Below are positions 4,166 to 57,513 of a stretch of 64,000 nucleotides of DNA, piece after piece. Each line of letters opens with the position of its first letter. Within the stretch, counting starts at the first letter, position 1. A program made the translations under genes and the position numbers. The notes under the pieces were generated by a model. It was not told the DNA's origin, did no database searches, and saw only the letters and a program-made list of their open reading frames with translations. Source of the DNA: Malacoraja senta (lineage: Eukaryota); the NCBI GenBank assembly GCA_038087875.1, contig CM075996.1:2110001-2174000 (forward strand), in the 5' to 3' direction.

Positions 4166-4959
4166 CGAGACCCTTCTTCAGTCTCATGCTGAAGCGGGTG
4201 CTGCCTGAGTCACTGAGGTACTCCAGCATTCTGTGTCCACCCTCTCTGGGGTCCGTCTCCAGTGCATGCGAGTGGGTGCGCGGCAAGAGGCAGATAAAGC
4301 CGGTTCCAGGGATCGGTGGCGCTGGAATTAAAAAACTGTGGCCTCTTTTGCAACTTTATGAAACTTCACTGAAGATTTTAATTGGCGGCATTTAGAGGAC
4401 AGTCTGAGCTTCCCCAGAGGAGAAGAAGTAGAGCCATCCCTCTTGGAAATGCAAGGAAGCACTCACACATCTGGAGCTGATGACATTCTGGGGAGAATAA
4501 AAATAGGATTAATATAGGATCCGTTTAAATTGGTGGTTGGTGCATTCTTTTCTGCGCTGAGGTGGCTGTTTACAAATCTATTTCTCTATTCTCGCTATCC
4601 CAATGGAATTTGGTATTGGACTATCCTCCTGATGGTGGCATTAAGATGAGAGCATGGCCAGGGTGAAACATAGAAAATAGGTGCAGGAGGAGGCCATTTG
4701 GCCCTAGGAGCCAGCACCGCCATTCATTGCGATCATGGCTGATCGTCCCCAATCAATAACCCGTGCCTGCCCTCTCCCCATATCCCTTGATTCCACTAGC
4801 CCATATCTAACTCTCTCTTAAATCCATCCAGTGACTTGGCCTCCACTGCCCTCTGTGGCAGGGAATTCCACAAACTCACAACTCTCTGGGTGATGTTGTC
4901 TTTGACGATGCAGGAAAGCATGGCAGCTTAACGAAAAGTTTCTGGCTTGTGTTACGCAG

Positions 4960-5164
4960 CTGGGGTAAGCGAGCGGCCCATAACCGGGCTCAGATCATCT
5001 ACTACGTGGCGGAGAACCTGGAGCAGCGGCGGGACGAGATGTCTCAGAGTCTGAGTAGTCTGACGGGCATGACCATGGAGGAGGCCGGGGCCGAAGTGGA
5101 AGCCTGCATTGAGCGGCTGTTCTACTGGGCCGCCTACAGTGACAAGTACGGGGGCACTGTCCAG
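4960..5164 (+). CDS. ALDH16A1: ALDH16A1 exon
   Basis: cgcag acceptor, gtgggt donor. WGKRAAHNRAQIIYYVAENLEQRRDEMSQSLSSLTGMTMEEAGAEVEACIERLFYWAAYSDKYGGTVQ; phase 2/0. Confidence 0.93.
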
Positions 5165-5546
5165 GTGGGTAGGCCGGTGGTGCGGTAGTGTGCGAAGGAT
5201 AAACTGATGTTAGACGCACAACGCTGGAGTAACTCAGCGGGTCAGGCAACATCTCTGGAGAGAAGGAATGGGTAACGTTTCGGGTCGAGACCCTTCTATC
5301 TGAAGAAGGGTCTCGACCCAAAACGTCACATATTCCTTCGCTCCAGATGCTGGAAAAATCGAAGGTAGATAAAAATGCTGGAGAAACTCAGCGGGTGAGG
5401 CAGCATCTATGGAGAGAAGGAAATAGGTGACGTTTCGGGTCGAGATCCTTCTAGGGTCTCGACCCGAAACGTCGCCTATTCCTTCGCTCCATAGATGCTG
5501 CCTCACCCGCTGAGTTTCTCCAGCATTTTTGTCTACCTTCACCTTT

Positions 5547-5905: not shown

Positions 5906-6076
5906 TAAAGCTATGTCCCTAGTCATTGACATTTCCATCCCGGGAAAATGGCTGCAACTGTTTACCTGAGAGTATTTGACATACTCTATATCAGGTCTCC
6001 CCTCCACCTCCAGCATTCCAGAGAAAACGACCCAGGTTTGGTGATGAAACACATTGTGCCCTTTGTCTTTTTTCAG

Positions 6077-6262
6077 GAAACTCAGCTCTATGGCGCCACC
6101 ATCATGGTCCGGGAGCCCATCGGTGTGATAGCCATTGCATGCCCCGATGAGAACCCTCTGCTCAACTTTGTGAGTCTCTTTGCACCGGCAGTCGTTCGAG
6201 GGAATGTGGTCGTTATTGTTCCCAGCGAGCGGTATCCTCTGCCAGCCTTGGAACTCTACCAG
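6077..6262 (+). CDS. ALDH16A1: ALDH16A1 exon
   Basis: tttcag acceptor, gtacac donor. ETQLYGATIMVREPIGVIAIACPDENPLLNFVSLFAPAVVRGNVVVIVPSERYPLPALELYQ (REP.GV and GN motifs); 186 nt, phase 0/0. Confidence 0.93.
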
Positions 6263-6665
6263 GTACACACTGGTTTACACTGCAACAATTGCTCAACCAC
6301 GGACACTCTTGTGGAATCTCTCATTTTTATTAGATTTTGGAGATTGCAGGTTAATTGGCTTCGGTAAGATTCGGTAAATTGTCCCTCGTGTGTAGAATAG
6401 TGCTAATGCGCGGGGTGATCGCTGGTCGGCACAGACTCTGGGCTGAAGGGCCTATTTCTGCCATGTATCTCTAAAGTCTAAAAGTCTAAAGATTACTGTT
6501 GGCTCTTGGCAGTTAAATGCCTCACACCATAGCTGACACTTAACTAGAATGGCCTGATCAATATGTAGGAAGGAACTGCAGATGCTGGTTTAAACCGAAG
6601 ATAGACACGAAAAGCTGAGTCACTTAGCGGGGCAGGCAGCATCTCTGGGGGAAAGGAATTGGTGG

Positions 6666-14464: not shown

Positions 14465-14867
14465 AACCTTCACGTGGTCCACCCTGTTTCGACGAATGCA
14501 ATCAACCCGACGTGCACAAACAATTAGATCAAATACGGGGTTACGCCTGCGCCCGGGTGGTACTAGAAAGGGACTACACACTGTCCACGGGAACCCTGGG
14601 GGATTTCCAGGACCGCTGGGCACCGCGGGGGTTTGAGTGTATCCTGGATAAGGATCGTAATATAGTTGTTTAGTACTTTACTTAGTAATGTGTTTGTCTT
14701 GCATTATGGTGGTGGGTTTGTTTTATTGTGTTGTAAATACTATTTTAATGTTTGAATAAATATTTTTGCTTTAAAAAAAAAACCCCAGAAGAAACAAAAA
14801 AAATTAGATCAAATAGAACAAGTTGACCTATAACTTTAGGCTGTGCACGCCAAACGCAGGAAGAAGA
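14465..14867 (+). mobile_element. 5'-truncated ribozyme-headed short retroelement interrupted by a Tx1/L1-like 3' end
   Basis: TSD AGGCAGAAA at 14458-14466 and 14868-14876; (gaa)n tail. Inner insert 14536-14801 with poly(A) is flanked by duplicated AATTAGATCAAATA. Confidence 0.75.
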
Positions 14868-22074: not shown

Positions 22075-24565
22075 GTGCGAGAGGAAATCTAAGGATCCAA
22101 TCTACAACATAACCTGAGGTGCCCTTGTTTAGATTTGAATCGATATTTAAGTGGTACACATAAGATTAATGTCAATCTAAAGCTTTCATGTTGAGGTGGC
22201 AGGTATAAAACTGGGTGGTGAATCTGTGGAATTCTTTGCCACAGAAGGCTGTGGAGGCCAAGTCAGTGGATATTTTTTACAGCAGTGATAGATAGATTCT
22301 TCATCAGTACAGCTGTCGGAGGTTATAGGGGAGAAGGCAGGAGAATGGGGTTAAGAGGGAGAGATAGATCAGCCATGATTGAATGGCAGAGTAGACTTGA
22401 TGGGCCAAATGGCCTAATTCTCCTCCTATTCCTTATGACCAGGGTGCAACAGCTTTTCGCAGTCACTTGTACTGCCTGTGAGAAGCTGTCACTGTATAAA
22501 GGCTTTTCATCGATTTCTCTGTCAAAATAAAAAGAATATGTTTTTAATTCAAGTCCTCAAGAACTACCAAAACATTTTTAAATGTAGTCGCTTCAGACTA
22601 TGATAGACCAGCACCTCGTATTCCGCTTGAGTAGCTTACACCACAATGGTATGAACACTGCATTCTCCAATTTCGAGTCATCCCTCCCCTGCCCTCTTCC
22701 TTACCCCCAACCTGGTGCTCACACACATCCCACCCCACCCCAGTTACCCTGCTCCCTGCTCGTCCCCCCGTTCCCATCTTTTATCCCTCTTCCCCCCCCC
22801 CCAATCCCCTCTCCCCTCTCCAGCTTTACATTTACTCCTCTTATCTGTGTGTCTTTTTAACTTGACTTGACTTGACTCTCTGAACAACCGCACAAGAGTT
22901 CCTATGTGTGTAAGCACAAATGGCAAATAAAGTTTTTTGATTTGATTTTTTTTTTTTTAATCTGACGACACCCTTTTGGCTCCTTATCACCTCTAGCCTA
23001 GCACTTACTCCACAATCTGCCAATCACACCCCTCACCTGTATCCACCTACCACTTGTCCGGCTTTGCCCCACCCCCACCACTCTTTTCCAGCACTCTCCC
23101 TCCTACTCCATCAGTCAGACAGGTCTCGACCCGAAACAAACGTCATCTGACCATTCCCTCCACAGATGCTGCCTGACCCGCTGTCTTCCTCCAGCACTTT
23201 TTTTTGACGTGTAGACGTCTAACCGTAAGAAACTAAGCTCTTGCCTTTGGCATTTCTCCCATTTTGTTTTCAGTACAGCTCGAAGTCGCTCTCCACTCTC
23301 CTGTCCGTTCCTTGAGACTGAAGCCCTCCAGTGCTGCCAACATCCTCGTGCATCCTGACTGGACCTATAGGCCATTCACGTTCTTCCTATGGCTAGGCAG
23401 CTAGAACGACACACAGTACTCTAACCAATGTCTTGTGCATCTGTAGTGGGACATCCTAACTCGTACTGAGGACCTGGTCCCTTGAAGGTAAGCACACCAT
23501 ATGCTTCCCAGTGAGTTGTGAGGTGTTTATTTATTTATTTTGTTGTCAAACCTGTATTATCAGGACCTTTTCAGAGCCAACATTTACATTCCCCATTATA
23601 CTTCTAGAATAGCTTGCTTTAGTGTGACTTTAATGCTCTGAACCGCAAGCACGAATGTTTGAGCTCTCCAGCGGCTACTTGCTTTCATTTGTGAAGGTGA
23701 TGAAGTAGCGATCCAGTAGATAGCAGCGGTTCTATCAATCACAATCACACATTTGCCAAGTCAGTCACACAAATAAAAAGCAACATAACACACAAAATGC
23801 ATTTTAACATAAACATCCACCACAGTGACTCCTCCACGTTCCTCACTGTGATGGAACGCGAAAAAAAAGTTAAAATCTCTTCCCTTCTTTGCTCTCCCGC
23901 GGTCGGGGGCCTCGAGCCCTCCGTTGACGGGACGATCTTGACTCCTGTAGCCGGCGGCGTTTGGGCCCTCCACATCGGGGCGATCAGCTCCTGCATCGGG
24001 GGGATGACAGCTCCCCCGCGCCGGCAATCGGACCCCGCGTTGGGGCTGGTCGAGCCTCTGCGTTCGTTGGAGATCCCAACTAGCCTCTCCCGAGACTGCG
24101 AGCTCACGATGGTAAAGTCCGCAGGCCACGGTTGGGGCAATCCCAGGCAAGGTATCGGCTCCGATGTTAAGTCCACGCCCCACGGTGGGGCACAAGGACA
24201 GTCTGAGGAGGCCTCCAGCTCCATCGATGGTAGGCCGCAGCGCGACCGGAGATGCGACCTGGAAAACAATCGCATCTCCGGCAAGGTAAGAAACTGAAAA
24301 AAAAAGTTTCCCCTGACTCCCACCCCCTTCCCCCACATAAAACAAACCGGAGAACATTTACACAAACTTTTAACACATACTAAAAAAATTTTTTTAAGGA
24401 CGGAAAAACAGGCAGACTGTTGGCGGGGCTGCCAATCATGCGGCGCCCCCTGGTGGTGAAAGATCAGTGGTTGACAAAAGGATTCAAGAATGCTCGATAA
24501 AACCTCGATGTGCGCAGCCTAAAGTTGTAGGGCAACTTGTTCTATTTGATTGTGCACGCCAGGTT

Positions 24566-24619
24566 GATTGCATTCGTCGAAACAGGGCGGACCACGTGAA
24601 GGTTGCAATCTCCCACCCC
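24566..24619 (-). ncRNA. HDV/CPEB3-like self-cleaving ribozyme (54 nt, minimal P4) at the 5' end of a short retroelement
   Basis: Minus strand reads GGGGUGG-GA-GAUUGCA-ACC-UUCACGU-GGU-CCGCCCU-GU-UUCGA-CGAA-UGCAAUC. P1, P2 and P3 all pair, with a G+1.U wobble and the catalytic-position C in CGAA. Confidence 0.8.
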
Positions 24620-31500: not shown

Positions 31501-33487
31501 CTGGGTCTCTGGTGTTGTAAGGCAGCAACTCTACCGCTGCACCACCATGCCTGCCCAATACTCAAGTTCTTGGCCAACACTCAAAACATTATCTGATGAT
31601 GCCACAACCTTAATCTATAAAGATTAAAACTAATCACACATGATCTTGTATTTTAAGAGATGAGACATTAAACTTTCTCGCTAATGTGGTTGCGAAATAT
31701 CCCAAAGGAATATGTCAGTGTAGCATAGGGCTGTTCTGCAGGACAGTGTTAGTTCTCAACAGACTAAACATTGCGATAGTTCCTGAAGAGATTTTACTTT
31801 AGAGATACAATGTGGAAACAGGCCCTTCAGCCCACCGAGTCCGCGCCAACCAGCGATCACACCAGCACTATCCTACACACTAGAAAACATTTTTTTACAG
31901 AAGCCAATTAACCTGCAAACCTGCACGTCTTTGGAGAGTGGGAGCGAAACTCGAGAAAACCCACGTGGTCAGAAGCTTGATGAAGCTTGTCAGAATCTCG
32001 AAGGCTTATCTTTTGTGCATTAGTTTTGCAAGATTGTCAGTCAGAGTTTGCAAACTGATGTCTCTGTATAATCTGAGTTGATCAACCACTCACTGTTGTG
32101 CACTTAATCTGTCCATCTGGAGAAATTAATGGTGTTGAAAAGATGTTGGCAGATGATATTTGACCCTTTTTAATTGAGTGCTATGTTTGTATCTATAGAA
32201 AAAGCATCATAAAACTCCAGCAAAACACAAAGAGCTGGAGGAACTCAGCGATTCAGGTGGCATCATTGGAGGGTTTAAGAAGGAACTGCAGATGCTGGAA
32301 AATCGAGTGTACACAAAAATGCTGGAGAAACTCAGCGGGTGCAGCAGCATCTATGGAGCGAAGGAAATAGGCCAATAAATAATAATAATAATAATAATAA
32401 TCATTTTATTTACTGGCGCCTTTCTAAAACCCAAGGACACCTTACAATGCATAGAATCACAACAAAACAAAAAAAAAACATAATCGGAATAAATTAAATT
32501 TTTTTTTTTTTTTTTTTAAATAAAGAAATAGGCATCATTGGAGGGAATGGACAGATGACGCTTTGGGTCAATCTGAAGGAAGGTCCCGGCCTGAAGGTCC
32601 CGGTCATTTAGTCCCTCCGCAGAAGGGAAGTTCTTCCAGCACTTTGTGATTTTCACTCCAGTTTCGTAGCATCTGCTATTCATTGTGACTCCAGAATAAA
32701 TCTTAAAAATATCTACCCACCTTAGACAGGTACGTGGACAGGGCTGAATGGCCTACTCCTGCACCTATTTTCTTTTTAAACGCAAGCTTGTTTAGTTTAG
32801 TGCCAGTTAACAAATGTTGGAATATAATCTTGTACAAAGACAAACCAACAGGAGTCCATTCCTGCCTCATTGTCGATTTGAATTGAATTGAATTGAATTG
32901 AATAAATGCTATTAGACAAGTATGTATACATACAAGGAATTTGCCTTGGTGCTTTGCTCGCAAGTAACAACACGATATACAGTAAACAATTAAAAAATAA
33001 AACATTATCCTTTAAACATGTGAAGAATGAAATAAAATACCGGAGCAAAAAGAGGCTACAGATTTTTGGATGTTGAGTAGAGCTACTACTCGTGGGGAAA
33101 AAAAGCTTTTCAATGCAATAATAATGAAATGGTGCCTAATTTGGACATCTTTCTTAGGAAGGCATGAAGGAAATGTTGACATCTTTCTTAGGAGGCATTA
33201 AGGAAACCTCTCTGCTCTTTCTGAATGACAATAAAGATCCCCCTAATTATAGATCACTCCCACAAAATTCACCTTACCAAATGTCCCTTCTTCTTTGGAG
33301 TCCATTAGGATTGATCTTGTCCTCGGCTGCTGTCTGTGTAGAGTTTGCAGGTTTCGCCCTGTCACCGCGTGGGTTTCCTCCCACATCTCAAAGACGTGCG
33401 GGCTTGTAGGTTAATTGGCCCCTCTGTAAATTGCCCCCTTAGTGTGTAGGGAGTGGATGAGAAAGTGGGATAACATGGAAATAGCGT

Positions 33488-33625
33488 GGAGTGGGAGATT
33501 GCAACCTTCACGTGGTCCTCCCTGTTTCGACGAATGCAATCAACCTGGCGTGCACAAACAGAAGATCAAACAGAACAAGTTGTCCTACAACTTTAGGCTG
33601 TGCACGCCATACGCAAGAAGAAGAG
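33488..33625 (+). mobile_element. Full-length ribozyme-headed short retroelement (Ingi/Vingi-dependent candidate)
   Basis: TSD ATAGCGT(G) at 33481-33488 and 33626-33633. HDV-like head at 33488-33541 with two P1 mismatches; tail ...gccatacgcaagaagaaga. Confidence 0.75.
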
Positions 33626-34703
33626 ATAGCGTGAAGGGGTGGCCGATGGCCGGCGTGGACCCGGTGGCCTGTTTCCATGCTGTATCTTTTAATCGATCAA
33701 TCTGCACACAACTTGCACGTCTGAGATTGAGCGGGTCAAACGATCCTCAGACTTCCCAACTTTACGATCACGAACCGTCCCAACTTTGCGATCACGAACT
33801 GTCCCACTCCTAATAAAAACAGAACCGCTGAATGGTTACTGGGCAACGTTACTGGGTTTTGAATACTTAAACATATCTACTCACCTTGGACAGGTACATG
33901 GATAGGACAGGTTTAGAGGGATATGGGCCAAATGCAGGCAGGTGGGACTAGCTTAGATGGGACATGTTGGCCGGTGTGGGCAAGTTGGGCCGAAGGGCAT
34001 GTTTCCATGCTGTTTCACTCTATGACTCTTCCACATTGATCCTCTGCTCAGTATTGCTCTCATTGTGTTTACATTTCATCATCCATATCATATCATAGTG
34101 GCCTCATATCTTATTATTAATTATCTGAAAATCATTCCAGAAAATTGAATAAAACAGATACAGAAGCGACCTTTAGCCTATCTGTAAACATACATTTTTA
34201 AGAAACATATTGCTATAGGTAATGATTTATTATTTTCTGAGATGCAAAATAGTGAAAGGTCTGGATAGAGTGAATGTGGAGAGAATGTGTACACTAGTGG
34301 GAGAGTCTAGGGCCAGAGGGCATTGCCTCAGATACAAGTACTTACATTTAGAATGGAAATGCAGAGAAATTTCTTTAGTCAGAAGGTGGTGAACCTGTGG
34401 AATTCATTGCCACAGACGGCTGTGGAGGCCAAGTCATTGGGTATTTTTAAAGCAGGGATTGACAGGTTCTTGATTAGTGCGGGTGTCAAAGGTTGCGGGG
34501 AGAAGGCAGGAGAATGGGGTTGAGTGGGAGAGATAGATCAGCCATGATTGAATGGCGGAGTAGACTTGATGGGATGAATGTACTAATTCTGCTCCTGTCA
34601 CTTATGACCTTATTACCGGGAATGACTCAAAAAGGAAGCCGATATTGTCAGACATAGACCACCCCGTCAAATAGCCATAGGGCCATGCAGATTAGAAACA
34701 GAC

Positions 34704-43350: not shown

Positions 43351-45261
43351 TAATGAATGCAGCGAGTGAGGCCTTATGCACTCACATGCCTTATGCACTC
43401 ATACCAAAGGGTAAAATAAACATAACACCTAACACAAAGGTAGACAAAAATGCTGGAGAAACTCAGCAGGTGAGGCAGCATCTATGGAGAGAAGGAAATT
43501 GGAGACGTTTCGGGTCGAGACTCGAAAGGTCACCCATTCCTTCTCTACCGAGATGCTGCCTCACCCGCTGAGTTTCTCCAGAATTTTGTACTGACCTTTA
43601 TGAAAGTGCATGTTCTATTTGCTAACAATGGAAACTTTGTGCTATGAATAGATGGTAAGGGAAGGGATGCTTATCTCAGAGATGTTGGCAGAGATTACTA
43701 TGTCAACATGCTTCAGGCCAGTCTACCACTGACGGTCTACTTCCAAAGGCCTGCTACCCAACCTATGCCAAGACCCATTGACCCCTCAGGGCCCATGCTC
43801 CTTGTTTTACCTTGACGTCTGGTGGATTGTCAGACCTCGATTTTTTTCATAATTGCTACCTCTTCTCAGAAGGCGCAGCGGTAGAGTTGCTGCCACGCCG
43901 CGCCAGAGACCCGGGTTCCATCCTGACCACGGGTCCTGTCTGAAAGATAGAGTTTCGGGGGGAGGGGGGAGGGGGGAGGGGGGAGGGGGGGGGTGGAGGG
44001 GGGAGGGGGGAGGGGGGAGGTGGGTGGAGAGGAAGAAACTGGAGCTGAGTAAAGGCCGGAACAAATCAGGGCCAGCAAGAATAGACCACTGGAAGAGTGG
44101 AGCCCACAATGGTCCATTGTTGGCTGGGGAAGATGTGCTAACGATAGGGATACAAGGATGTGAACAGTGGAACTAGCAGGATAACTAGGGTGGGGGAGGG
44201 GGCGGGAGATGGTGGTGGTGGTGGTGAGCGACTGCGAGGGTTACTTGAAATGAGAGAAATCAATGTTCATACCACTGGGTTGAAAGCTGGCCAAGCGAAA
44301 TATGAGGCACTGCTTGGTCCTGACGTCCTCTGAGTGAGGGCTACATGTATATATGTATGAAGTTTGTTTTGTTGTGCTGTTCTTATAACAAATGTAAAGC
44401 ACTTTGGCCAACGAGAGTTGTTTTTTAAATGTGCGATATAAATAAATGTGACATGACTTGACTTGCTCTGGTTAACCTTGTCGTGCATGCGGCGAAATCT
44501 TCCTCTCGCCCCTCTTATTAACTCTGAACTTTTTTAGCTCCAGACCCATCAACATGTCTGTACTCATAAGTTCATAAGTGATAGGAGCAGAATTAGGCCA
44601 TTCGGCCCCCATCAAGTCTACTGCGCCATTCAATCATGGCCGCATTCATACCTTTCCCTCTCAACCCCATTCTCCTGCCTTCTCCCCATAACCCCTGACA
44701 CCCGTACTAATCACGAAACTATCTATCTCTGCCTTAAAAATATACATTGACTTGGGCTCCACAGCCTTCTGTGGCAAAGAATTCCACAGATTCACCACCT
44801 GGTGGCGTCGCAGTGGCTGCCTCGCCGACAGTCTGTCTCATCCTTTTGTTGTTTGTTAGTATGTGTTAAATGTATGTTTTAGTGTTCTCTAGCTTGTTTT
44901 ATGTGGGGGTGGGGGTGGGGGGGGGGGGGCGGAGTTGGTGGAAACTTTTTCTAATCTCTTTCCTCGACGGAGATGCGATTTTTTTCCGTACCATATTTCC
45001 GTCTGCACTGTGGCCTGACATTGAGGAGCTGGAGGCTTTTGTTGGAGACCGACCGGGAGCTCCAACCGCGGGAGCCTGCGGACTTTAACATCGTGGAGAT
45101 GGCGGGCCCTGGTTAGGGACCGACTTCGGGAGATCAAGGCCGCTGGAGCTTCGATCACCGGCTGCGGGAGCTTCAATCGCCCCAACTGCGGATGGTTCGA
45201 CTGCTCCGACCGCCGGAGAAAAATGAGGGAAGAAGATTGGACTTTATTGCCTTTATTGTCA

Positions 45262-46811
45262 TTAGAAACGGGAATAGTGCCGGAGGATTGGCGTACTGCG
45301 CATGTTGTTCCGTTGTTTAAAAAGGGTTCGAAGAGTAAACCTAGCAATTATAGACCTGTTAGTTTGACGTCAGTGGTGGGCAAATTAATGGAAAGGATAC
45401 TTAAAGATAATATATATAAGCATCTGGATAAGCAGGGTCTGATTAGGAACAGTCAACATGGATTTGTGCCTGGAAGGTCATGCTTGACTAATCTTCTTGA
45501 ATTTTTCAAAGAGGTTACTAGGGAAATTGATGAGGGTAAAGCAGTGGATGTTGTCTATATGGACTTCACTAAGGCCTTTGACAAGGTTCCTCATGGAAGG
45601 TTGGTTAAGAAGATTCAATTGTTGGGTATTAATGGTGGAGTAGCAAGATGGATTCAACAGTGGCTGAATGGGAGATGCCAGAGAGTAATGGTGGATGGCT
45701 GTTTGTCAGGTTGGAGGCCGGTGACTAGTGGGGTGCCTCAGGGGTCTGTGTTGGGTCCACTGTTGTTTGTCATGTACATCAATGATCTGGATGAAGGTGT
45801 GGAAAATTGGATTAGTAAGTATGCAGATGATACTAAGATAGGTGGTGTTGTGGATAATGAAGTAGATTTTCAAAGTCTACAGAGAGATTTAGGCCATTTG
45901 GAAGAGTGGGCTGAAAGATGGCAGATGGAGTTTAATGCTGACAAATGTGAGGTGCTACATCTCGGCAGGACAAATCAAAATAGGACGTACACGGTAAATG
46001 GTAGCGAATTGAGGAATGCAGTTGAACAGAGGGATCTAGGAATAACTGTGCATAGTTCCCTGAAGGTGGAATCTCATGTAGATAGGGTGGTAAAGAAAGC
46101 TTTTGGTGTGCTGGCCTTTATAAATCAGAGCATTGAATATAGAAGTTGGGATGTAATGTTAAAATTGTACAAGGCATTGGTGTGGCCAATTCTGGAGTAT
46201 GGAGTACAATTTTGGTCGCCTAATTATAGGAAGGATGTCAACAAAATAGAGAGAGTACAGAGGAGATTTACTAGAATGTTGCCTGGGTTTCAGCAACTAA
46301 GTTACAGAGAAAGGTTGAACAAGTTAGGTCTTTATTCTTTGGAGCGCAGAAGGTTAAGAGGGGACTTGATAGAGGTCTTTAAAATTATGAGCGGGTTAGA
46401 CAGAGTGGACGTGGATAAGCTTTTCCCATTGAGAGTAGGGAAGATTCAAACAAGGGGACATGACTTGAGAATTAAGGGACAGAAGTTTAGGGGGAACATT
46501 AGGGGGAACTTCTTTACTCAGAGAGTGGTAGCTGTGTGGAATGAGCTTCCAGTGGAAGTGGTGGAGGCAGGTTCGATGTTATCCTTTAAAAATAGATTGG
46601 ATGGGTATATGGACGGGAAAGGAATGGAGGGTTATGGTCTGAGTGCAGGTAGATGGGACTAGGGGGAAGCATTTTATTTTTAATTTAAAAAAAAATAAAA
46701 AAAAATTTAAAAAAAATTAAGAAAAATTAATGTTCGGCACGGACTTGAAGGGCCGAGATGGCCTGTTTCCGTGCTGTTATGGTTATATGGTTATATGGTT
46801 ATATGGTTATA
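45262..46811 (+). mobile_element. CR1 LINE, 5'-truncated, open RT-containing ORF2
   Basis: [46 protein letters not shown]; stop at 46660-46662; (ggttatat)n tail. Confidence 0.93.
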
Positions 46812-47089
46812 TCACAGTGGGGAATGTGGGGAATCTGCTGTGGTGGATGTTTACGCAAACTTTTATGTAGTTGTGCGTCTTGTTGCTTTTTTTATGTATG
46901 GCTGTATAGTAATTCGAGTTTCACTGTACCTTATCTGGTACATGTGACAATAAACGGACCTTTGAACCTTTGAACTTCCGATGAAAGAATTTCCTCCTCA
47001 TCTCCATCCTAATGAACGTCCTTTTATTCTGAGGCTGCGCCCTCTGGTCCTAGACCCTCCCACTCTTCACAACTCTGGACTTGTACGTT

Positions 47090-48828
47090 CTCCTACCCTT
47101 CCCTTCCTTCCAGGGTTCCACAGAACCCTCTTCTCCACAGTGTGCAACCTCCTCAAGCCTCGAGCCAACACTCTCCCTACCTCCACTCCGGATCTCTGCA
47201 ACTCATTCCTCCACTTTTTCGCTGACAAAATCAGCACCATCTATCAACCCTTATCCCCTGTACCCGACTCCCCAGCATCTACTCCACCACTTACCAAGGC
47301 CCCTCCTTTCAACATCTCCTCTGATCTCCATACCCCTCCCCCTCACTGCTTCCTCTCCCAGTTTGACCCGGTCACCCCTACTGAAATCTCCAAACTCATC
47401 AGCTCTTCCAAACCCACTACCTGCTCCCTCGACCCTCTCCCCACTCCCCTGCTGAAGTCCTGCCTCCCCGCTCTCTGCCCCAACCTCACTAATCTCTTCA
47501 ACTCCTCATTGTCCCAAGGAATTGTCCCCTCTGCTTTCAAAACTGCTGCTGTCACACCAATCTTAAAGAAACCTGGTCTTGATCCCTCCTCTCTCATTAA
47601 CTACCGCCCTATCTCAAACCTCCCCTTTCTTTCAAAAACCCTGGAGCGTATCGTCGCGTCACAACTTCATTCCCACCTCTTCGCGTATAACCTATTCGAA
47701 CCCCTCCAATCTGGCTTTCGCCCCTTCCATAGCACAGAAACTGCTCTCCTCAAAGTCCTCAACGACCTCCTCACCTCTGCTGACACTGGCTCCCTCAACA
47801 TCCTCATCCTCCTCGACCTGAGTGCAGCCTTCGATACCGTCAACCATAACATCCTGCTCACCAGACTTAGGGACCTTGGCATTGAAGGTTCTGCACTCAG
47901 CTGGCTCCGTTCCTACCTTTCCAACCGATCCCACTTCATCTCTCTCCATAACCACACCTCTGCCACAGCCACTGTCTCTCAAGGCATTCCCCAAGGCTCC
48001 GTTCTTGGTCCCCTCCTCTTCATCATCTACATCCTCCCCCTTGGTCATATACTCCGTCACTTCAACCTGGACTTCCACTGCTATGCTGATGACACCCAGA
48101 TCTATCTCAGTACCAAGTCCCCCCACCACCCCCCTCTCTCCCATATCAACTCCTGCCTGTCAGCCATCAAATCTTGGATGCAACTCAACTTCCTTAAATT
48201 AAACAGTAACAAAACAGAATTTCTCCTCATTGGCTCCAAATCAACACTTACCAAAATTAACAACCCCACTCTCACTATTGACGGCACCACTGTCTCCCCA
48301 TCTCCTCAGGCCCGCAACCTTGGCGTGATCTTTGACTCAACCCTCTCCCTTGAGCCTCACATCCGCCATGTTGTCAAAACATCATTTTTTCTCCTCCGCA
48401 ACATTGCCAAAATCAGATCCTCTCTCACACCCCCCGCTGCTGAAAGACTCATCCATGCCTTCATCTCCTCCCGACTGGACTACTGTAACTCTCTTCTCTT
48501 TGCCATTAATTCCAGCAACATCAACCGACTCCAACTGGTCCAGAATGCACCCGCCCGACTCATCACCCACACCAAATCCTGGCACCACATCACCCCAGTT
48601 CTCAAAGAACTTCACTGGCTTCCCATTTCCCACCGGATCATCTACAAAATCCTGGTCCTCACCTACAAAGCCCTCAACCACTTGCCCCCCCCTTATCTCA
48701 CTGACCTCCTCTCCCCCTACCAACCCTCACGGTCCCTCAGATCCACATCAGCCGGTCTCCTCTCCATTCCAAAATCCAACCTCTGCACTTTTGGAAACAG
48801 AGCCTTCTCCAGGGCAGCTCCCAGGCTC
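47090..48828 (+). mobile_element. L2-clade LINE ORF2 (RT), cut by the gap
   Basis: NYRPISNLPFLSK, QSGFRPFHSTETALLKV, LDLSAAFDTVNH, QGSVLGPLLF, YADDTQIY, SRLDYCNS. Confidence 0.93.
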
Positions 48829-49028
48829 NNNNNNNNNNNNNNNNNNNNNNNNNNNNNNNNNNNNNNNNNNNNNNNNNNNNNNNNNNNNNNNNNNNNNNNN
48901 NNNNNNNNNNNNNNNNNNNNNNNNNNNNNNNNNNNNNNNNNNNNNNNNNNNNNNNNNNNNNNNNNNNNNNNNNNNNNNNNNNNNNNNNNNNNNNNNNNNN
49001 NNNNNNNNNNNNNNNNNNNNNNNNNNNN
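48829..49028. other. Assembly gap (200 N)
   Basis: Run of N; different LINEs on either side. Confidence 0.99.
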
Positions 49029-51305
49029 ACCATAATATGGTTGAGTTCATTAGGATGGAGAGTGACATTGTTAATTCAGAAACAACGGTTCTGAACTTAA
49101 AGAAAGGTAACTTTGAGGGTATGAGACGTGAATTGGCCAAGATTGACTGGAAATTAGTTCTAAAAGGGTTGACGGTGGCTATGCAATGGAAGGCATTTAA
49201 AGACTGCATGGATGAACTGCAAAAATTGTTCATCCCAGTTTGGCAAAAGAATAAATCAGGGAAGGTAGTGCATCCGTGGATAACGAGGGAAATCAGGGAT
49301 AGTATCAAAGCAAAAGATGATGCGTACAAATTAGCCAGAAAAAGCAGCATACTAGAGGACTCGGAGATATTCAGAGACCAGCAGAGGAGGACAAAGGGCT
49401 TAATTAGGAAAGGGAAAATAGATTATGAAAGAAAACTGGCAGGGAACATAAAAACTGACTGCAAAAGTTTTTATAGATATGTGAAGAGAAAGAGATTAGT
49501 TAAAACAAATGTAGGTCCCTTGCAGTCAGAAACAGGTGAATTGATCAAGGCTATGGCGGACCAATTGAATAACTACTTTGGTTCCGTCTTCACTAAGGAA
49601 GACATAAATAATCTGCCGGAAATAGCAGGGGACCGCGGGTCAAAGGAGATGGAGGAACTGAGTGAAATCCAGGTTAGTCGGGAAGTGGTGTTGGGTAAAT
49701 TGAATGGATTAAAGGCCGATAAATCACCAGGGCCAGATAGGCTGCATCCCAGAGTACTTAAGGAAGTAGCTCCAGAAATAGTGGATGCATTAGTGATAAT
49801 TTTTCAAAACTCTTTAGATTCTGGAGTAGTTCCTGAGGATTGGAGGGTAGCAAACGTAACTCCACTTTTTAAGAAGGGAGGGAGAGAGAAAACGGGGAAT
49901 TACAGACCAGTTAGTCTAACATCAGTAGTGGGGAATCTGCTAGAGTCAGTTATTAAAGATGGGATAGCAGCACATTTGGAAAGTGGTGAAATCATTGGAC
50001 AAAGTCAGCATGGATTTACGAAAGGTAAATCATGTCTGACGAATCTTATAGAATTTTTCGAGGATGTAACTAGTAGAGTGGATAGGGGAGAACCAGTGGA
50101 TGTGTTGTATCTGGACTTTCAGAAGGCTTTCGACAAGGTCCCACATAAGAGATTAGTATACAAACTTAAAGCACACGGTATTGGGGGTTCAGTATTGATG
50201 TGGATAGAGAACTGGCTGGCAAACAGGAAGCAAAGAGTAGGAGTAAACGGGTCCTTTTCACAATGGCAGGCAGTGACTAGTGGGGTACCGCAAGGCTCAG
50301 TGCTGGGACCCCAGCTATTTACAATTTATATTAATGAACTGGATGAGGGAATTGAAGGCAACATCTCCAAGTTTGCGGATGACACTAAGGTGGGGGGCAG
50401 TGTTAGCTGTGAGGAGGATGCTAGGTGACTGCAAGGTGACTTGGATAGGCTGGGTGAGTGGGCAAATGTTTGGCAGATGCAGTATAATGTGGATAAATGT
50501 GAGGTTATCCACTTTGGTGGAAAAAACAGGAAAGCAGACTATTATCTAAATGGTGGCCGATTAGGAAAAGGGGAGATGCAGCGAGACCTGGGTGTCATGG
50601 TACACCAGTCATTGAAAATAGGCATGCAGGTGCAGCAGGCAGTGAAGAAATCGAATGGTATGTTGGCTTTCATAGCAAAAGGATTTGAGTATAGGAGCAG
50701 GGAGGTTCTACTGCAGTTGTACAGGGTCTTGGTGAGACCACACCTGGAGTATTGCGTACAGTTTTGGTCTCCAAATCTGAGGAAGGACATTATAGCCATA
50801 GAGGGAGTGCAGAGAAGGTTCACCAGACTGATTCCTGGGATGTCAGGACTTTCATATGAAGAAAGACTGGATAGACTTGGCTGATACTCGCTAGAATTTA
50901 GGAGATTGAGAGGGGATCTTATAGAAACGTACAAAATTCTTATGGGGTTGGACAGGCTAGATGCAGGGAGATTGTTCCCGATGTTGGGGAAGTCCAGGAC
51001 AAGGGGTCACAGCTTAAGGATAAGGGGGAAATCCTTTAAGAAATGAGAAAATATGAGAAAAAACGTTTTCACACAGAGAGTGGTGAATCTCTGGAACTCT
51101 CTGCCACAGAGGGTAGTTGAGGCCAGTTCATTGGCTATATTTAAGAGGGAGTTAGATGTGGCCCTTGTGGCTAAAGGGATCAGGGGGTATGGAGAGAAGG
51201 CAGGTACGGAATACTGAGTTGGATGATCAGCCATGATCATATTGAATGGCGGTGCAGGCCGAATGGCCTACTCCTGCACCTATTGTCTATGTATCTATGT
51301 ATCTA
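49029..51305 (+). mobile_element. CR1 LINE ORF2 with premature stops, plus 3' UTR
   Basis: [44 protein letters not shown]; in-frame TGA at 50426 and 50882. Confidence 0.92.
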
Positions 51306-51728
51306 AATGCGGGCAAATGGGACTAGCCTGGTATGTCAACATGGTCGGCATGGACAATGTGGGCCGAAGGGCCTGAATCTGTGCTGTACAACTCTGTGAC
51401 CCCAGCTAGATTCTTCTGAGATTTTATGACATTGGAATCTTGGTCTCCAAAGTCTTTGATTTTTACTTGACGTGTTTGAAGTTTATCAAAATGTCAATTA
51501 ATAATTTTCTTAACTGACCTTTCTTTTTTTTTCGTGCATATATTGTTTTGTTCTGACCTCAGGTGGTTAATGCTAATTTTTTTTTACAATTCATTTAAGT
51601 ACTTTTGACCTGTGCCTCTGTAACTAAGAAATGTGGCGGTTATGTCAGTTCACGGGTGGAATCCAATGAGTAGCAGAGTGATAAGAGGTTGTCGGGGGTT
51701 ATGGGGAAAAGGCAGGAGAATGGGGTTA

Positions 51729-52053
51729 AACCCCTGTCCCACGGTACGAGTTCATTCCAAGAGCTCTCTCTCCCGAGTTTGCCCTGATTCGAACTCGGAG
51801 ATTTACGGTAATGGCTGCTCGTCGGTACTCGGGGCTCTCGTGATCATTCTTCATCATGTTGAAAAATCTTCACGAGTCTTCCCGTGCTTACCTGCCGTTA
51901 GCGAGTCTTCCCGAGTACCTGCCGTTAGCGTTACGAGACGTCCCCGAGCTCCGACGTACCCGCTACGTTCATTCTCCGTGCTTACCACGAGTTTGATTTT
52001 TTTTTAAACTCGGGGGAGCTCTTGGAATGAACTCGCACCGTGGGACAGGGGCT
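51729..52053. mobile_element. MITE with long TIRs (PIF/Harbinger-like); related left end at ~62339
   Basis: cccctgtcccacggtacgagttcattccaagagctc ... gagctcttggaatgaactcgcaccgtgggacagggg; interrupts a CR1 3' UTR at a TTA. Confidence 0.7.
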
Positions 52054-54304
52054 ATTAGGAGGGAGAGATAGATCAGCCATGATTGAATAGCAGAGTAGAC
52101 GCAATGGGCCGAATGGCCTGATTCTGCTCCTGTCACTTGAGACCCTATGATGATGATAATGACCAGGTCCAGTGCTATCCAATAAGATCAGATAGGACTG
52201 CACATAAATACAATCAAGTCCAACTCGAGTGTAGTAGGTAGAGCAAAGGGGAAGATACAGAATGTAGAATAGCATTTTAGTTTGGTTTAGAGATACCGCG
52301 TGGAAACAGGCCCTTTGGCTCACCGGGTCCGTGCTGACCAAGGCAGGCGTGCCACCTTGTAGTGTAGGTCGCTGCCCGAGTGTGACCCCCCCCCCCCCCC
52401 ACTTGGACCGGCCACTCATGGGTTCCTTGAGCAGGAACGGCGTGGGTGAAATGGCAGGCGGGGATACAGACTCGGCAAGTCCGGGAAACCTAAACCCATC
52501 TCCCCACGTTCACAAACGATCACATTCCCAACCCACTCAAAACCCATCAATCTCACTAACTTTTTATTAATGTTGTTTACCAACTGTGGCCAAATTTCTT
52601 TAGTTTATTCTGAGACACATCAAAGTAACAGAATACGAATTCTTCCTTTGAATTAGGAACAAAAGCTGCCTTTCACTGCTCTGCCTTTTTGCTTAGTTGC
52701 ATTTAATATTTTGATTGCTGGCCATTCCTTCTCTTTTTCTCTCGTTCCTCTTTTCTTCCCACGTCTCTCTCTCACCCTTTTCCCCTGCCTTTCGTGTTGT
52801 TCAGTACAATGGTCCAATGGCACTCTATTGTCACATAGAGCGATACATCGTGGAAACGGGCCCTTTGGCCCTAACTTGACCACACCGACCAACATGTCCC
52901 AGCTACACTAGTCCCACCTGCCTGCGTATGGTCCATATCCCTCTAAATCTGTCCTATCCATGTACCTGTCTGAATGTTTCTTAAATGTTGCCACAACTAC
53001 CTCCTCTGGCAGCTTGTCCCATACACCCACCACCCTTTGTGTGAAAAAGTTACCCCTCAGATTCCTATTAAATCTTTTCCCCTTCACCTTAAACCTATGA
53101 CCTCTGGTCCTCGAATCCCCTACTCTGGGCAAGAGACTCTGCGCGTCTACCCGATCTATTCCCCTCATAATTTTATAGACCTCAATAAGATCACCCCTTA
53201 TCCTCCTGCGCTCCATGGAATAGAGACCCAGCCTGCTCAACCTCTCCCTATAGATCAGACCCTTGAGTCCTGGCAACATCCTCGTGAACCTTCTCTGTAC
53301 CCTTTCCATCTTGGCATCATCTTCCTCTGTCTGCTGCCTCTCTCATTAGTGATACAGCGTGGAAACTGGTCCTTCGGCCCACCGAGTCTGTGCCGACTTA
53401 TGATCACCCGTACGCTAGTTCTATCCGACACATTGGGGACAATTTACAGAAGCCAATTAACCTACAAACCTGCACGTTGTTGGAGCGTGGGAGAAAGCCG
53501 GAGCACCCGGCGAAAACCCACGCGGGTCACGGGGAGAACGTACAAACCCCGTACAGGCAGCGCCCGTAGTCAGGATCGAACCCGGGTCCCTGGTGCTGTG
53601 GGGCAGCAGCTCTACCCGCTGCACCACAGGGGGATAGGGGACTTGCCCCAGTGTCGAGGCAGGAGGCATGAGCCTCGATCTTGTCCCATGTTTTGGTCGA
53701 CTGAGGCACTAACTCTTCATCTTGCTAAGTGTCTGATAACCACGGGAGGTTTACAAGAATGATCCCAGGAATGAGTGAGTGGGTTAACCTATGATGAGCG
53801 TTTGACGGCACTGGGCCTGTACTCGTTGGAGTTTAGAAGAATGAGGGGGGGGCCTCATTGAAACTTACCGAATGGTGAAAGGCTTGGATCGAGTGGATGT
53901 GGAGAGGATGTTTCCACTAGTGGGCGAGTCCAGGACCAGAGGTCACAGCCTCAGAATTAAAGGACGTTCCTTCAGGAAGGAGACGAGGAGGAATTTCTTT
54001 AGTCAGAGTGTGATGAATCTGTGGCATTCTTTGCCGCAGAAGGCTGTGGAGGCCAAGCCAGTAGATATTTTTTAAGGCAGAGATAGTTAGATTCTTGATT
54101 AGTACGGGTGTCAGAGGTTATGGGGAGAAGGCAGGAGAATGGGGTTAGGAGGGAGAGATATAGATCAGCCATGATTGAATGGCGGAGTGGACTTGATGGT
54201 CCGAATGGCCCAATTCTTCTCCTATCACTTATGGCTTGTTTCCTTGTGTTTCCAGGAGATGTCCAGTCTTTAGTTGCGGAATATAAACCCGTGGGAATGT
54301 TGAG

Positions 54305-54373
54305 ATGAAATTTTCTCATGTACGTCCGACGAGCTCAGCAAAGAAACAGCGCGTGTTACTGAAGGAGCTGATC
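54305..54373 (+). CDS. FLT3LG: FLT3LG-like first coding exon (exon starts at 54256, ATG at 54305)
   Basis: Acceptor ttgtgtttccag, donor gtgagt at 54374. MKFSHVRPTSSAKKQRVLLKELI, phase 0, G at -3 of the ATG; joins in frame to the next exon. Confidence 0.7.
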
Positions 54374-54398
54374 GTGAGTATATATATCTCCTTTCGTT

Positions 54399-55168
54399 AG
54401 ATGTAACTCTTGGGGGGCCAATGGAATATGGGGGGACATGGGGAGATAGCAGCCATCATTGAATGGCGGACTAGACTTGATGGGCTGAATGGCCTAATTC
54501 TGCTCCTATCAATCAATCAATCAGTTTTATTCCTCACTGGCACATAAAGTGCAAGTGAAATGAATTTGCCAGCAGCGGTACAATGAGAAAGAACACACAA
54601 AAACACAATAAAAATTGAACACAAACATCCACCACCGCATTCATCACCATGGTGGAAGGCACAAAATTTGGCCAATCCTCCTCCATTTTCCCCCGTGGTC
54701 ATGTATGACCTTATGACCTCGCCTCTGATACCGTGTGCGTGGAGTCTGCACGTCCTCCCTGTGACCTCGTGGGTTTTCTCTGGGCACTCCGGTTTCCTCC
54801 CACAGACTGGCTGATGGTTAATCACCTTTTTAACGCAAGTTAATGACAAAAGTAAACGGAGGGGGGGGTGGGGGGTTTAAGGTCCACGTGAAAATCAGTG
54901 CCGGGGGGTTATGGGGAGAAGTGGGAGCAGCAGCAATAGAGAATAGACAATAGGTGCAGGAGGAGGCCATTCGGCCCTTCGAGCCAGCACCGCCATTCAA
55001 TGTGATCATGGCTGATCATCCATGCCCCTGCTCCCCGAATGGTTCATTGACGCACAGTGCAAGGCTTGGTGTTGCATGCAACCCGGTAACGTCGCACAGA
55101 ATCTTGGGCGGCACGGGTGGCGCAGCTATAGAGTTGCTGCCTCACAGCGCCGGTGACCCGGGTTCCAT
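54399..55168 (+). repeat. 770-bp direct repeat, copy 1
   Basis: Matches 57514-58283 at a constant offset of 3115; the only difference I found is A55128 versus G58243. Confidence 0.93.
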
Positions 55169-57513
55169 ACAAAAATTTCAACTGGGAGAGAATTTTATTT
55201 TATGGATTAAGTTACTATATAACAAACCTACAGCTAGAATACTTACTAATAACATATTATCCTCGAAATTTCAACTATCAAGGGGAAATAGACAAGGATG
55301 CTCATTATCACCACAGCTGTTTGCTCTCATTATTGAACCGCTAGCAGAAAAAATTAGAATACACCCTGATATTCATGGATATAATACTAAAGACTCATAT
55401 AATAAAATATCTTTATACGCGGATGATATATTATTGTATATTACAAAACCTCAAATCACTATACCAAATATATTAAATTTAATTGAAGACTTCGGATCTT
55501 TTTCTGGATATAGAATAAATTGGAATAAAAGTGAAATTATGTCAATAAAACCGAAAGATTCAACACATCTTTTAAAATTCCCTTTTAAAATAGCTACAGA
55601 AAAATTTAAATATTTGGGAATCGAAATTACCAGAGCATATCAAGGTATGCTCAGGGCAAATTTTGACCCCCTACTTAATAAACTGAATACATTAATTAAA
55701 TTCTGGAAAACGCTTCCGATGTCTTTAATAGGCCGAATAAACGCAATAAAAATGATCTTTTTACCACAAATTTTATACCTATTTCAATCAATTCCTATAT
55801 ACTTACCTAAGAAGTTTTTTAAAAAACTCGACTCAGATATCACTAATTTTATATGGGACTATAAATCACATAGAATACAAAAAACTCATCTGAATAAATC
55901 TAAAGTATTGGGGGGTCTAGCACTACCCAATTTTATGTATTATTATTGGTCAGTAAATATTAAAAACATGATTCAACTGATGGATAACTCCGCCCAGCAA
56001 GTAGACTGGATTGTAATGGAGAAAGAGGATTGCTCCTCTAGAAACATTGGAGCGATCCTCCTCTCTCCAATGAAATTGAATAACATAAACTATAATAAGA
56101 ACCCAATTATTCATAGTACAATCCGTATTTGGAAACAAATAAAACAAAATTTAAAATTAAGAAACTTATCACTTTTATTACCTATAGTCAATAACCCTTC
56201 GTTTAGTCCTTCTATTATAGATAAAGCTTATACACAATGGGATAGACTAGGAATTAAAACGCTTGGTGACTTGTATGAAACTGGAAAATTACTTTCATTT
56301 CAACAATTACAAATAAAATATAAACTCGGAAATAATCAATATTTTAAATACTTTCAAATATGCGACTATTTGAAAAAATATATAAAAGATCATCATAATA
56401 ACCCAGCAGATGTACTGGACGAGGCAATGCAGACAAAAGCGGAATCAGCAAACTTAATATCATATTTGTACAATATTATCTTAAATGTACAAATACCATC
56501 TACGGAGGGTATCAGAAGAGACTGGGAACAAGAGTTAGCCATTAAAATTTCAAAGGAAAGTTGGAATGAATACTTATTAAAAGTACATAAATGCTCGATT
56601 AATGTAAGACACACTTTAATACAATTTAAAATTTTACATAGATTATATTATTCGAAAACTAAAATTCATAAAATTTTCCCAAACGTATCATCTATTTGTG
56701 ATAAATGTCAATCCCAAGAAGCAACTATAGCGCACTCATTTGTCTTCTGTACAAAAATTCAAAAATTTTGGAATGAAATTTTTGAAATCTTTACAAAGTT
56801 ATTTAAAACAAGACTGATACCCAAAGCAGAATGGATTATCTTCGGAATAACGGAAGATGATCCAGAACTAAATGTGTTTCAAAAGAAATTAATGGATTAT
56901 GGGTTAATAACTGGAAAAAAGCTAATTCTAAAATTTTGGAAGAAGGCTCCAATACCAACTATAAATATGTGGATTTCAAATATGTTTGAAACACTACACC
57001 TTGAAGAGATAAGACTCCTCCTAGCAGGTAAACCAGATCACTTCCACCTGACGTGGTCTGCATTTATAGAATTATTACAAACATAGGGTGCAAAAGTACT
57101 TTAAAAAAATAAAAAATTGAGGTCGGGTAAGGGGGGATGATAGTTGAAGAGTTGGTATGTCCTATTTACGTGATGCTCAAAAAAAAACATTTGTTTTTCT
57201 TTTTTTCTCTTTCTCTTTTCTTTTCTTGGGGCCTATTTCTTAACTCTTTTTCTTTCTGTTTTTAATTTCGCTCTCATAGGGTCTTCGTCCTTTTTTGTTG
57301 TTACATTTTCTACACTTTTCTACACTTGCACTTTTTCCTTCACTTTCTTCTCTCTTTCAATCTTTTCTTTCTTTAGTGTAAAAAAATAAATAAAGGGAGT
57401 ACATTAATTGTAAGAAGATATAAATGACGAGTATTAATGTATGTGGCTGTGATGTAATGTACTTCTAATAAATAAAAATAAAAAAAAATAAAAAATAAAA
57501 AATAAAAAAAAAA
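55169..57513 (+). mobile_element. Young 5'-truncated L1: uninterrupted ORF2 (RT to zinc knuckle), 3' UTR, poly(A)
   Basis: RGNRQGCSLSP, SLYADDILLY, FKYLG, GGLALP, CDKC..HSFVFC; TAG at 57084-57086; AATAAA at 57467 followed by an A-rich tail. Confidence 0.95.

Follow-up and report, generated by a model that had tools for sequence, protein, structure and literature searches.

The 138-nt element at positions 33488-33625 (+) of the window (the whole stretch of 64,000 nucleotides analyzed here) is almost certainly derived from a ~3-kb Vingi-type LINE by an internal deletion, which retained the first ~80 and the last ~40 bases. The evidence, as read from the sequence, is that the ends of the element are shared with the LINE, that independent deletion joints exist, that 5' ends fall at the first G of a predicted ribozyme fold, and that copies carry target site duplications (TSDs) and an (AAG)n tail. 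For its propagation, we propose that the element would be transcribed mostly by read-through from host promoters, and that a minimal HDV-like ribozyme would cut the RNA 5' of G1, freeing the element from the longer transcript. The 60 nt behind the ribozyme may then anneal to the final 40 nt, a step predicted for the short element and the 3-kb LINE alike, for which the support is statistical, and the LINE protein would prime reverse transcription at the tail and copy the element into new sites. Such pairing would make "both ends" the protein's unit and would hold the RNA 5' end beside the insertion site. We regard the explanation as a whole, comprising the Vingi-type deletion derivative, predicted ribozyme release, likely end pairing and copying by the LINE protein, as likely.

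In the window copy, the TSDs (atagcgtg) lie at 33481-33488 and 33626-33633, and G33488 is at once the last base of the left TSD, element position 1 and the predicted ribozyme G1, as the preliminary description had proposed. The predicted minimal HDV-like ribozyme, folded manually and matched by the same fold in sister families, occupies the first 54 nt (33488-33541). It consists of P1 (33488-33494 with 33517-33523), J1/2 (33495-33496), P2 (33497-33503 with 33535-33541), P3 (33504-33506 with 33514-33516), L3 (33507-33513) and a one-pair P1.1 (33509 with 33524), with six nucleotides (33525-33530) in place of P4, followed by the putative catalytic C at 33531. The ~80 nt that had been described behind the ribozyme amount to 84 nt, ending with the expected tail and (AAG)n. 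They begin with the remainder of the LINE 5' UTR (33542-33568, LINE ~55-81, common to the LINE copies L136 and L141-L144), which includes the 5' arm of a stem (33546-33556). A junction specific to the short family, composed of a local duplication and the deletion joint and placed approximately at 33569-33584 by alignment and LINE comparison, leads into the LINE 3' end (33585-33614), with the final ORF codons, the TAG stop (33594-33596) and the 3' stem arm (33599-33609), and then into the (AAG)n microsatellite (33615-33625). Neither an A- nor a B-box pattern was found on either strand of the element and a tRNA scan of it was empty, in agreement with the proposed lack of such boxes; Rfam searches of the window and of the element returned no relevant family. 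The copy sits within another very abundant short repeat (window ~33330-33690) that is found in many places and that we take to resemble the HE1-type SINE of sharks and rays.

The three copies reported in the 64 kb are all present, but only the one at 33.5 kb is whole and TSD-bounded. The second (24510-24619, -) has an intact ribozyme fold, an 8-nt internal deletion, no final ~20 nt and no TSD that could be seen. The third (14465-14867, +) begins at position 16, without P1 or the P2 5' strand, has the TSD aggcagaaa, and is interrupted by a later insertion of 266 bp (14536-14801) with AATAAA, an A-rich end and its own 14-bp TSD, presumably the 3' end of an L1/Tx1-type element.

The partner LINE was located from a tail-selected locus that enters a reading frame, the stop codon of which lies within the common tail. 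Walking upstream led to L136, a full-length, TSD-bounded LINE copy with the same head at its start and the same tail at its end, and head positions 1-~81 were also found in L142-L144. An autonomous LINE sharing both ends, which the preliminary description had called for, is thus represented by L136 and its relatives, though every copy examined is broken, the longest open stretch being 442 aa, and no intact copy was seen. The single ORF was deduced across several broken copies and from homologs, which are mostly ~1000-aa APE-RT proteins of 45-52% identity (best 71% among the matches listed). Pfam searches identified APE (PF14529/PF03372) and RT (PF00078) domains, and no RNase H family was detected at E <= 0.1 in LINE stretches spanning RT to the C-terminus. 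Among the 120 homologs listed there was no named Vingi protein; we take RNase H-type families to be listed for only three homologs, all long fused gene models. The single ORF with APE and RT and without RNase H agrees with the description of Vingi in PMC13708176. An indirect 5' resemblance runs via family D (one of the sister families described below), the APE of which is 31% identical and the head of which is like positions 2-74 of Vingi-2_Gav (supplement of PMC5786205). On this domain content and resemblance the partner would be classed as Vingi-type, so that the proposed link to a Vingi/Ingi RT, previously drawn from the tail alone, now has a partner protein behind it.

Several deletion joints connect the two LINE ends. 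The window-type joint keeps ~81 nt of head; six loci join LINE 1-95 to the last 40 nt, one duplicated locus retains LINE 1-90, and a further locus joins LINE 7-143 to 2573-2800 (the last ~230 nt). Because both LINE ends are joined in the short element, it is best described as an internally deleted non-autonomous LINE. The simpler possibility that it is only the 3' UTR of a longer LINE was rejected, since the 5' end of the LINE is present as well.

Exact 23-mers from the head and the tail occurred 4549 and 2980 times, respectively, in the genome (1.94 Gb), compared to no occurrence of the reversed controls, so the repeat is not a product of chance. From the first 45 Mb of contig C1, where 100 head sites and 79 tail sites were counted and 31 of the latter fell together with a head site, we estimated 9,600-11,600 copies, a figure that is likely too low; the family is put at about 10,000-12,000 copies. 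To locate the 5' ends, the 70 tail sites listed first among the 2980 were taken without regard to the 5' end (three pairs have shared flanks). Starts were found at position 1 in 52 loci and at position 2 in nine, and 64 of the 70 fell within positions 1-6; the remaining six comprise two LINE ends, two loci with the head farther upstream behind a later insert, and two short copies. The 5' ends are therefore not scattered, an outcome that would have spoken against the preliminary description, but begin at position 1-2 in 61 of 70 loci. A TSD score of at least 7 (length minus 3 per mismatch, scored without a chance control) was obtained in 60 of the 70, and the TSDs are mostly 10-13 bp. The short element has no ORF and has been amplified as a unit with TSDs. 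Mean pairwise identity inside subgroups is 90-92%, which indicates that the burst is old, and the short family is probably dead today.

The 54-nt head matches a P4-less HDV-like fold, for which self-cleavage 5' of G1 is predicted. In element numbering, P1 pairs 1-7 with 30-36 (opening with a G-U), P2 pairs 10-16 with 48-54, and P3, a 7-nt L3, the one-pair P1.1, the six bases replacing P4 and C44 in J4/2 complete the fold. Among 62 short copies, 25 retain every pair and core base, 12 are short of one pair (mostly at G1) and 25 are damaged; C44 is kept in 55, U20 in 61 and G25 in 55, bases whose roles are taken from PMC13635239. The LINE and the short family alike maintain C44, G25, U20 and the J4/2 pattern, and none of the subfamily-level changes seen at positions 8, 32 and 45 disrupts the fold. 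We consider it very likely that the ribozyme was active in the source copies. The prediction of a ribozyme head thus fits the family and the 24.6-kb copy, in which the fold is intact, but fits less well the window copy itself, in which the P1 pairs 3-34 and 5-32 are broken and which therefore probably carries a damaged ribozyme. Folding of the head without pseudoknots gave no signal (z = 0.09 and 1.13).

Since the copies of one family cannot show covariation, we searched the genome with APE for sister families and took 40 loci. Seven further families (B-H) in the same genome have the same fold at the 5' end with differing P1, P2 and P3 sequences, and in most of the seven it lies directly behind the TSD. 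In 15 hand-picked heads, some of them mis-parsed, 222 of 240 helix cells are paired. Sister families thus share the pairing without the sequence, which fits selection on RNA structure. A strict descriptor, with L3 and J4/2 patterns that we take to be those of the HDV literature, matched four of 21 metagenome upstream regions (three distinct) versus none of 155 internal control windows, and more were recognized by eye. With Rfam, the head of this family was not detected at E <= 10 or E <= 0.5 and reached no gathering threshold, and the CPEB3 model scored 63.8 bits in family D and 55.6 bits in the metagenome relative L361, the only two found to pass a gathering threshold (35 for this model). The family D match covers the full length of the Rfam model (L286:286-369, G000:C1:217550485-217550568). 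These scores suggest that the CPEB3 ribozyme of mammals originated from Vingi, and no such claim was found in the literature search listings. By eye, Vingi-2_Gav and SINE2-1_AMi also look alike (PMC5786205 supplement).

The final 80 nt of the window copy (33546-33625) fold into an 11-bp stem (z = -4.07), the two arms of which come from opposite ends of the LINE. With intact ends standing for this family, the segment behind the ribozyme ranked first of 578 windows as a partner for the tail. The stem is 8 bp long in the LINE versus 10-11 bp in the commonest short subfamilies; exact motifs of the lengthened stem are present in 26 of 65 short copies and the LINE motif in five. An initial pairing test with 40-nt windows reached significance neither for families B, C and F nor for this LINE, which was represented by a damaged copy. 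The test was then fixed beforehand and six elements were added, using intact ends and partner-shuffling controls. These six gave a combined p of ~0.002 for the longest perfect stem and ~0.04 for energy, and, in the test of own against reshuffled partners, 83 and 1192 of 50,000 permutations, respectively. In 11 other elements, complementarity between the 60 nt following the ribozyme and the element's own final 40 nt exceeds that of reshuffled partners: the longest perfect stems sum to 83, compared to 60.8 ± 3.9 after shuffling (0 of 50,000 for stem length, 3 of 50,000 for energy). No signal was left after a 40-nt shift of the 3' window or a 120-nt shift of the 5' window; shifting the 5' window by 60 nt left a weak remnant. 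The sample consists of one copy per family with both ends recognizable, and the stems are short (6-10 bp perfect); individually, family C and m320 show no convincing pairing. The idea was formed on family A, which is left out of the permutation on 11, and two metrics were tried; for family G, the better of two tails was used in the earlier partner-shuffle control and the worse in the final permutation. As a separate observation, the 3' ends of families A-G and of the metagenome elements all carry, immediately ahead of the microsatellite tail, a short motif with CG in it, in many cases CAYACG or ACACG, irrespective of the remaining tail sequence.

LINE copies were compared in 30 rows chosen by the 5' 197 nt of the LINE and another 30 chosen by its 3' end. 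Fourteen of the 5'-selected rows (13 distinct) have an inverted head before a truncated body and four have the head in line, the remainder being one internally deleted copy, three without a visible body and eight short derivatives; the head is therefore inverted in 13 of the 17 distinct LINE copies showing both head and body. An inverted head was also found in five of the 30 3'-selected rows, with one more complex. In the 19 distinct inverted insertions, the inverted piece terminates somewhere between 74 and 461 and in 17 of them extends to position 18 or lower; likewise in 17, over 700 nt of the LINE have been lost between the two pieces. A candidate TSD surrounds the whole insert in 14 of the 19 (only 7 nt in four of them) and overlaps the inverted piece in eight. 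This layout is the geometry of twin priming, linked here to the RNA's 5' end. An RNA held end to end would yield such copies and fits them; a structured 5' end might yield them too.

We slightly favor the view that end pairing is functional in insertion. The more specific reading, in which Vingi-type LINE RNAs would loop closed between the post-ribozyme segment and the last 40 nt and the protein would use the joined structure, is tentative, and we rate it a shade below even. If true, the loop would explain the two-ended mini-elements, the retention of ~80 nt of head, the longer stem and the inverted 5' ends. The strongest alternative is that the end complementarity is real but serves LINE RNA translation or stability, or is a by-product, with the ribozyme and the tail needed separately and the inversions caused by the structured 5' end. 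In its favor, a ribozyme and the 3' end alone are described as accounting for the R2 SIDEs (PMC3414825), the perfect stems are only 6-10 bp, several inner joints of the inverted copies show short fold-back sequences, and 23 of the 30 3'-selected LINE rows are plainly truncated, some only since the locus or the reference ends. It fits less well with a stem that is longer in the non-coding short element, with the at least ~80 nt of head (25 beyond the need of the ribozyme) found in all deletion derivatives seen, and with second priming at 74-461, directly behind the ribozyme; we consider it possible, at appreciably less than even weight. End-to-end pairing of non-LTR retrotransposon RNA was absent from the titles and abstract openings searched, which did not extend to patents, to reports in Repbase or to the Vingi paper of 2011.

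According to PMC5786205, it is an open question why two-ended derivatives arise in only a few clades of LINEs, and end pairing would provide a testable answer to that question. Functional looping would also be a design rule for Vingi-based gene writers. Donors for Vingi gene writing are reported to carry both UTRs (PMC13708176), so that a required stem and a tendency to inverted heads would bear on donor design. The 138-nt natural donor is a ready substrate for such a test.

For RNA, we examined 6% of a single poly(A) run made from a related organism. Of 910 matching reads, 94% continue into other sequence, which indicates that the element is co-transcribed with host RNA; at least 335 cross the 5' junction, and no pile-up of read starts at G1 was observed among the 910 poly(A) reads. 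First mates over the head numbered ~300-360 on the + strand versus ~210-245 on the - strand, a bias to which we give no weight, since a control exon had no reads. The reads that cross the 5' junction would be expected if the P4-less head cleaved poorly and its fold were a protective or protein-binding cap, the ends being determined where the LINE protein halts at this structure. The single P1.1 pair, the option of G37 to pair with the catalytic C44 in a competing UUCG hairpin, and a P4 region that is the shortest of the 15 heads (6 nt versus 15-42, one mis-parsed) point the same way, and the R2 ribozyme fold is described with cap-like protection (PMC13708176). Against a mere cap stand the core bases and J4/2 pattern retained in both LINE and short family, reports that P4-less HDV-like ribozymes cleave in vitro (PMC10879173), and a ribozyme with a non-standard second P1.1 pair that is reported among the fastest (PMC13635239), so that we find a cap without cleavage improbable. 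An equally unlikely alternative to ribozyme release is that the 5' head is an internal Pol II promoter in the manner of L1Tc. A single stretch of 77 nt at the start of L1Tc/NARTc is described as promoter and ribozyme both (PMC3383444), and sharp 5' ends are expected of any full-length short retroposon. Against this alternative, insertion ends match G1 of the fold and the sister families keep pairing rather than sequence, and promoter activity may coexist with the ribozyme.

By class, the element is on its sequence a bipartite non-autonomous LINE (SIDE), a kind already known, rather than a Pol III-type SINE. Its 5' part is the 5' end of the LINE and its last ~40 nt, including the stop codon, are the 3' end of the same LINE, with no tRNA-, 5S- or 7SL-type Pol III head. 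The earlier picture of a SINE-like element with a ribozyme head, a LINE tail and no tRNA promoter was accurate in these parts and needs revision in its class, the head also being LINE-derived. The nearest counterparts are NARTc (from L1Tc) and RIME (from ingi) of trypanosomes, which are likewise short and non-coding, have both ends in common with an ingi-group LINE, and carry an HDV-like ribozyme cleaving 5' of +1, whereas the ribozyme here is predicted (PMC3383444, PMC4035085). The present element is about half as long as NARTc (138 versus 263 nt; PMC3383444) and differs from both in a partner without RNase H, a head without P4 and dispersal in an intron-rich animal genome. Vingi-1_EE, Bov-A, RTESINE and WALLSI3 are described as non-autonomous Vingi derivatives or other bipartite LINEs (PMC5786205, PMC4494074); like the former, our family stems from a single-ORF Vingi LINE through internal deletion, with several joints of independent origin, and lacks a Pol III head (PMC5786205). 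R2 SIDEs of Drosophila also combine a ribozyme with the 3' end of the parent and are freed from a host co-transcript, but R2 is site-specific in 28S rDNA (PMC3414825), in contrast to the dispersed insertions here, which end in (AAG)n and mostly show TSDs of 10-13 bp.

The double-pseudoknot layout without P4 is shared with drz-Mtgn-1 and the theta ribozymes, which are described as almost confined to gut phages and often beside tRNAs, whereas the predicted ribozyme here heads an animal retroelement (PMC10879173). Twin-primed L1 insertions also have an inverted 5' piece, one TSD around the insert and a short overlap of TSD and inverted piece (PMC2912911, PMC4245944), and 5' inversion in human cells is reported to occur almost exclusively in L1 (PMC4245944). 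Compared to L1, the inverted piece here is nearly always the extreme 5' end of the RNA, and the loss exceeds 700 nt in 17 of 19.

Several observations were made beside the main analysis. In families D, E and B (L283-L286, L282, L271-L272), reading frames stay open over 860-1014 aa and copies are 96-98% identical to one another, so that these families are younger than the partner LINE. Two family D copies, L283 (G000:C4:35485400-35490000) and L284 (C8:933400-938000), carry four and at least six tandem repeats of a 26-nt unit that corresponds to the 5' half of the ribozyme, bounded by a GATC found in each of the P1 strands, and a comparable duplication at the 5' end was noted in L300 (family F). 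A family search for aldehyde dehydrogenase placed no exons around the three window copies of the element. Aldehyde dehydrogenase exons (+) lie at 526-1110, 4835-5185 and 5930-6364, representing the end of one gene copy and then the start of another. At window positions 45025-57083 lie several long frames (465-710 aa) that contain RT and belong to other LINE clades, adjoined by an assembly gap at 48829-49028.
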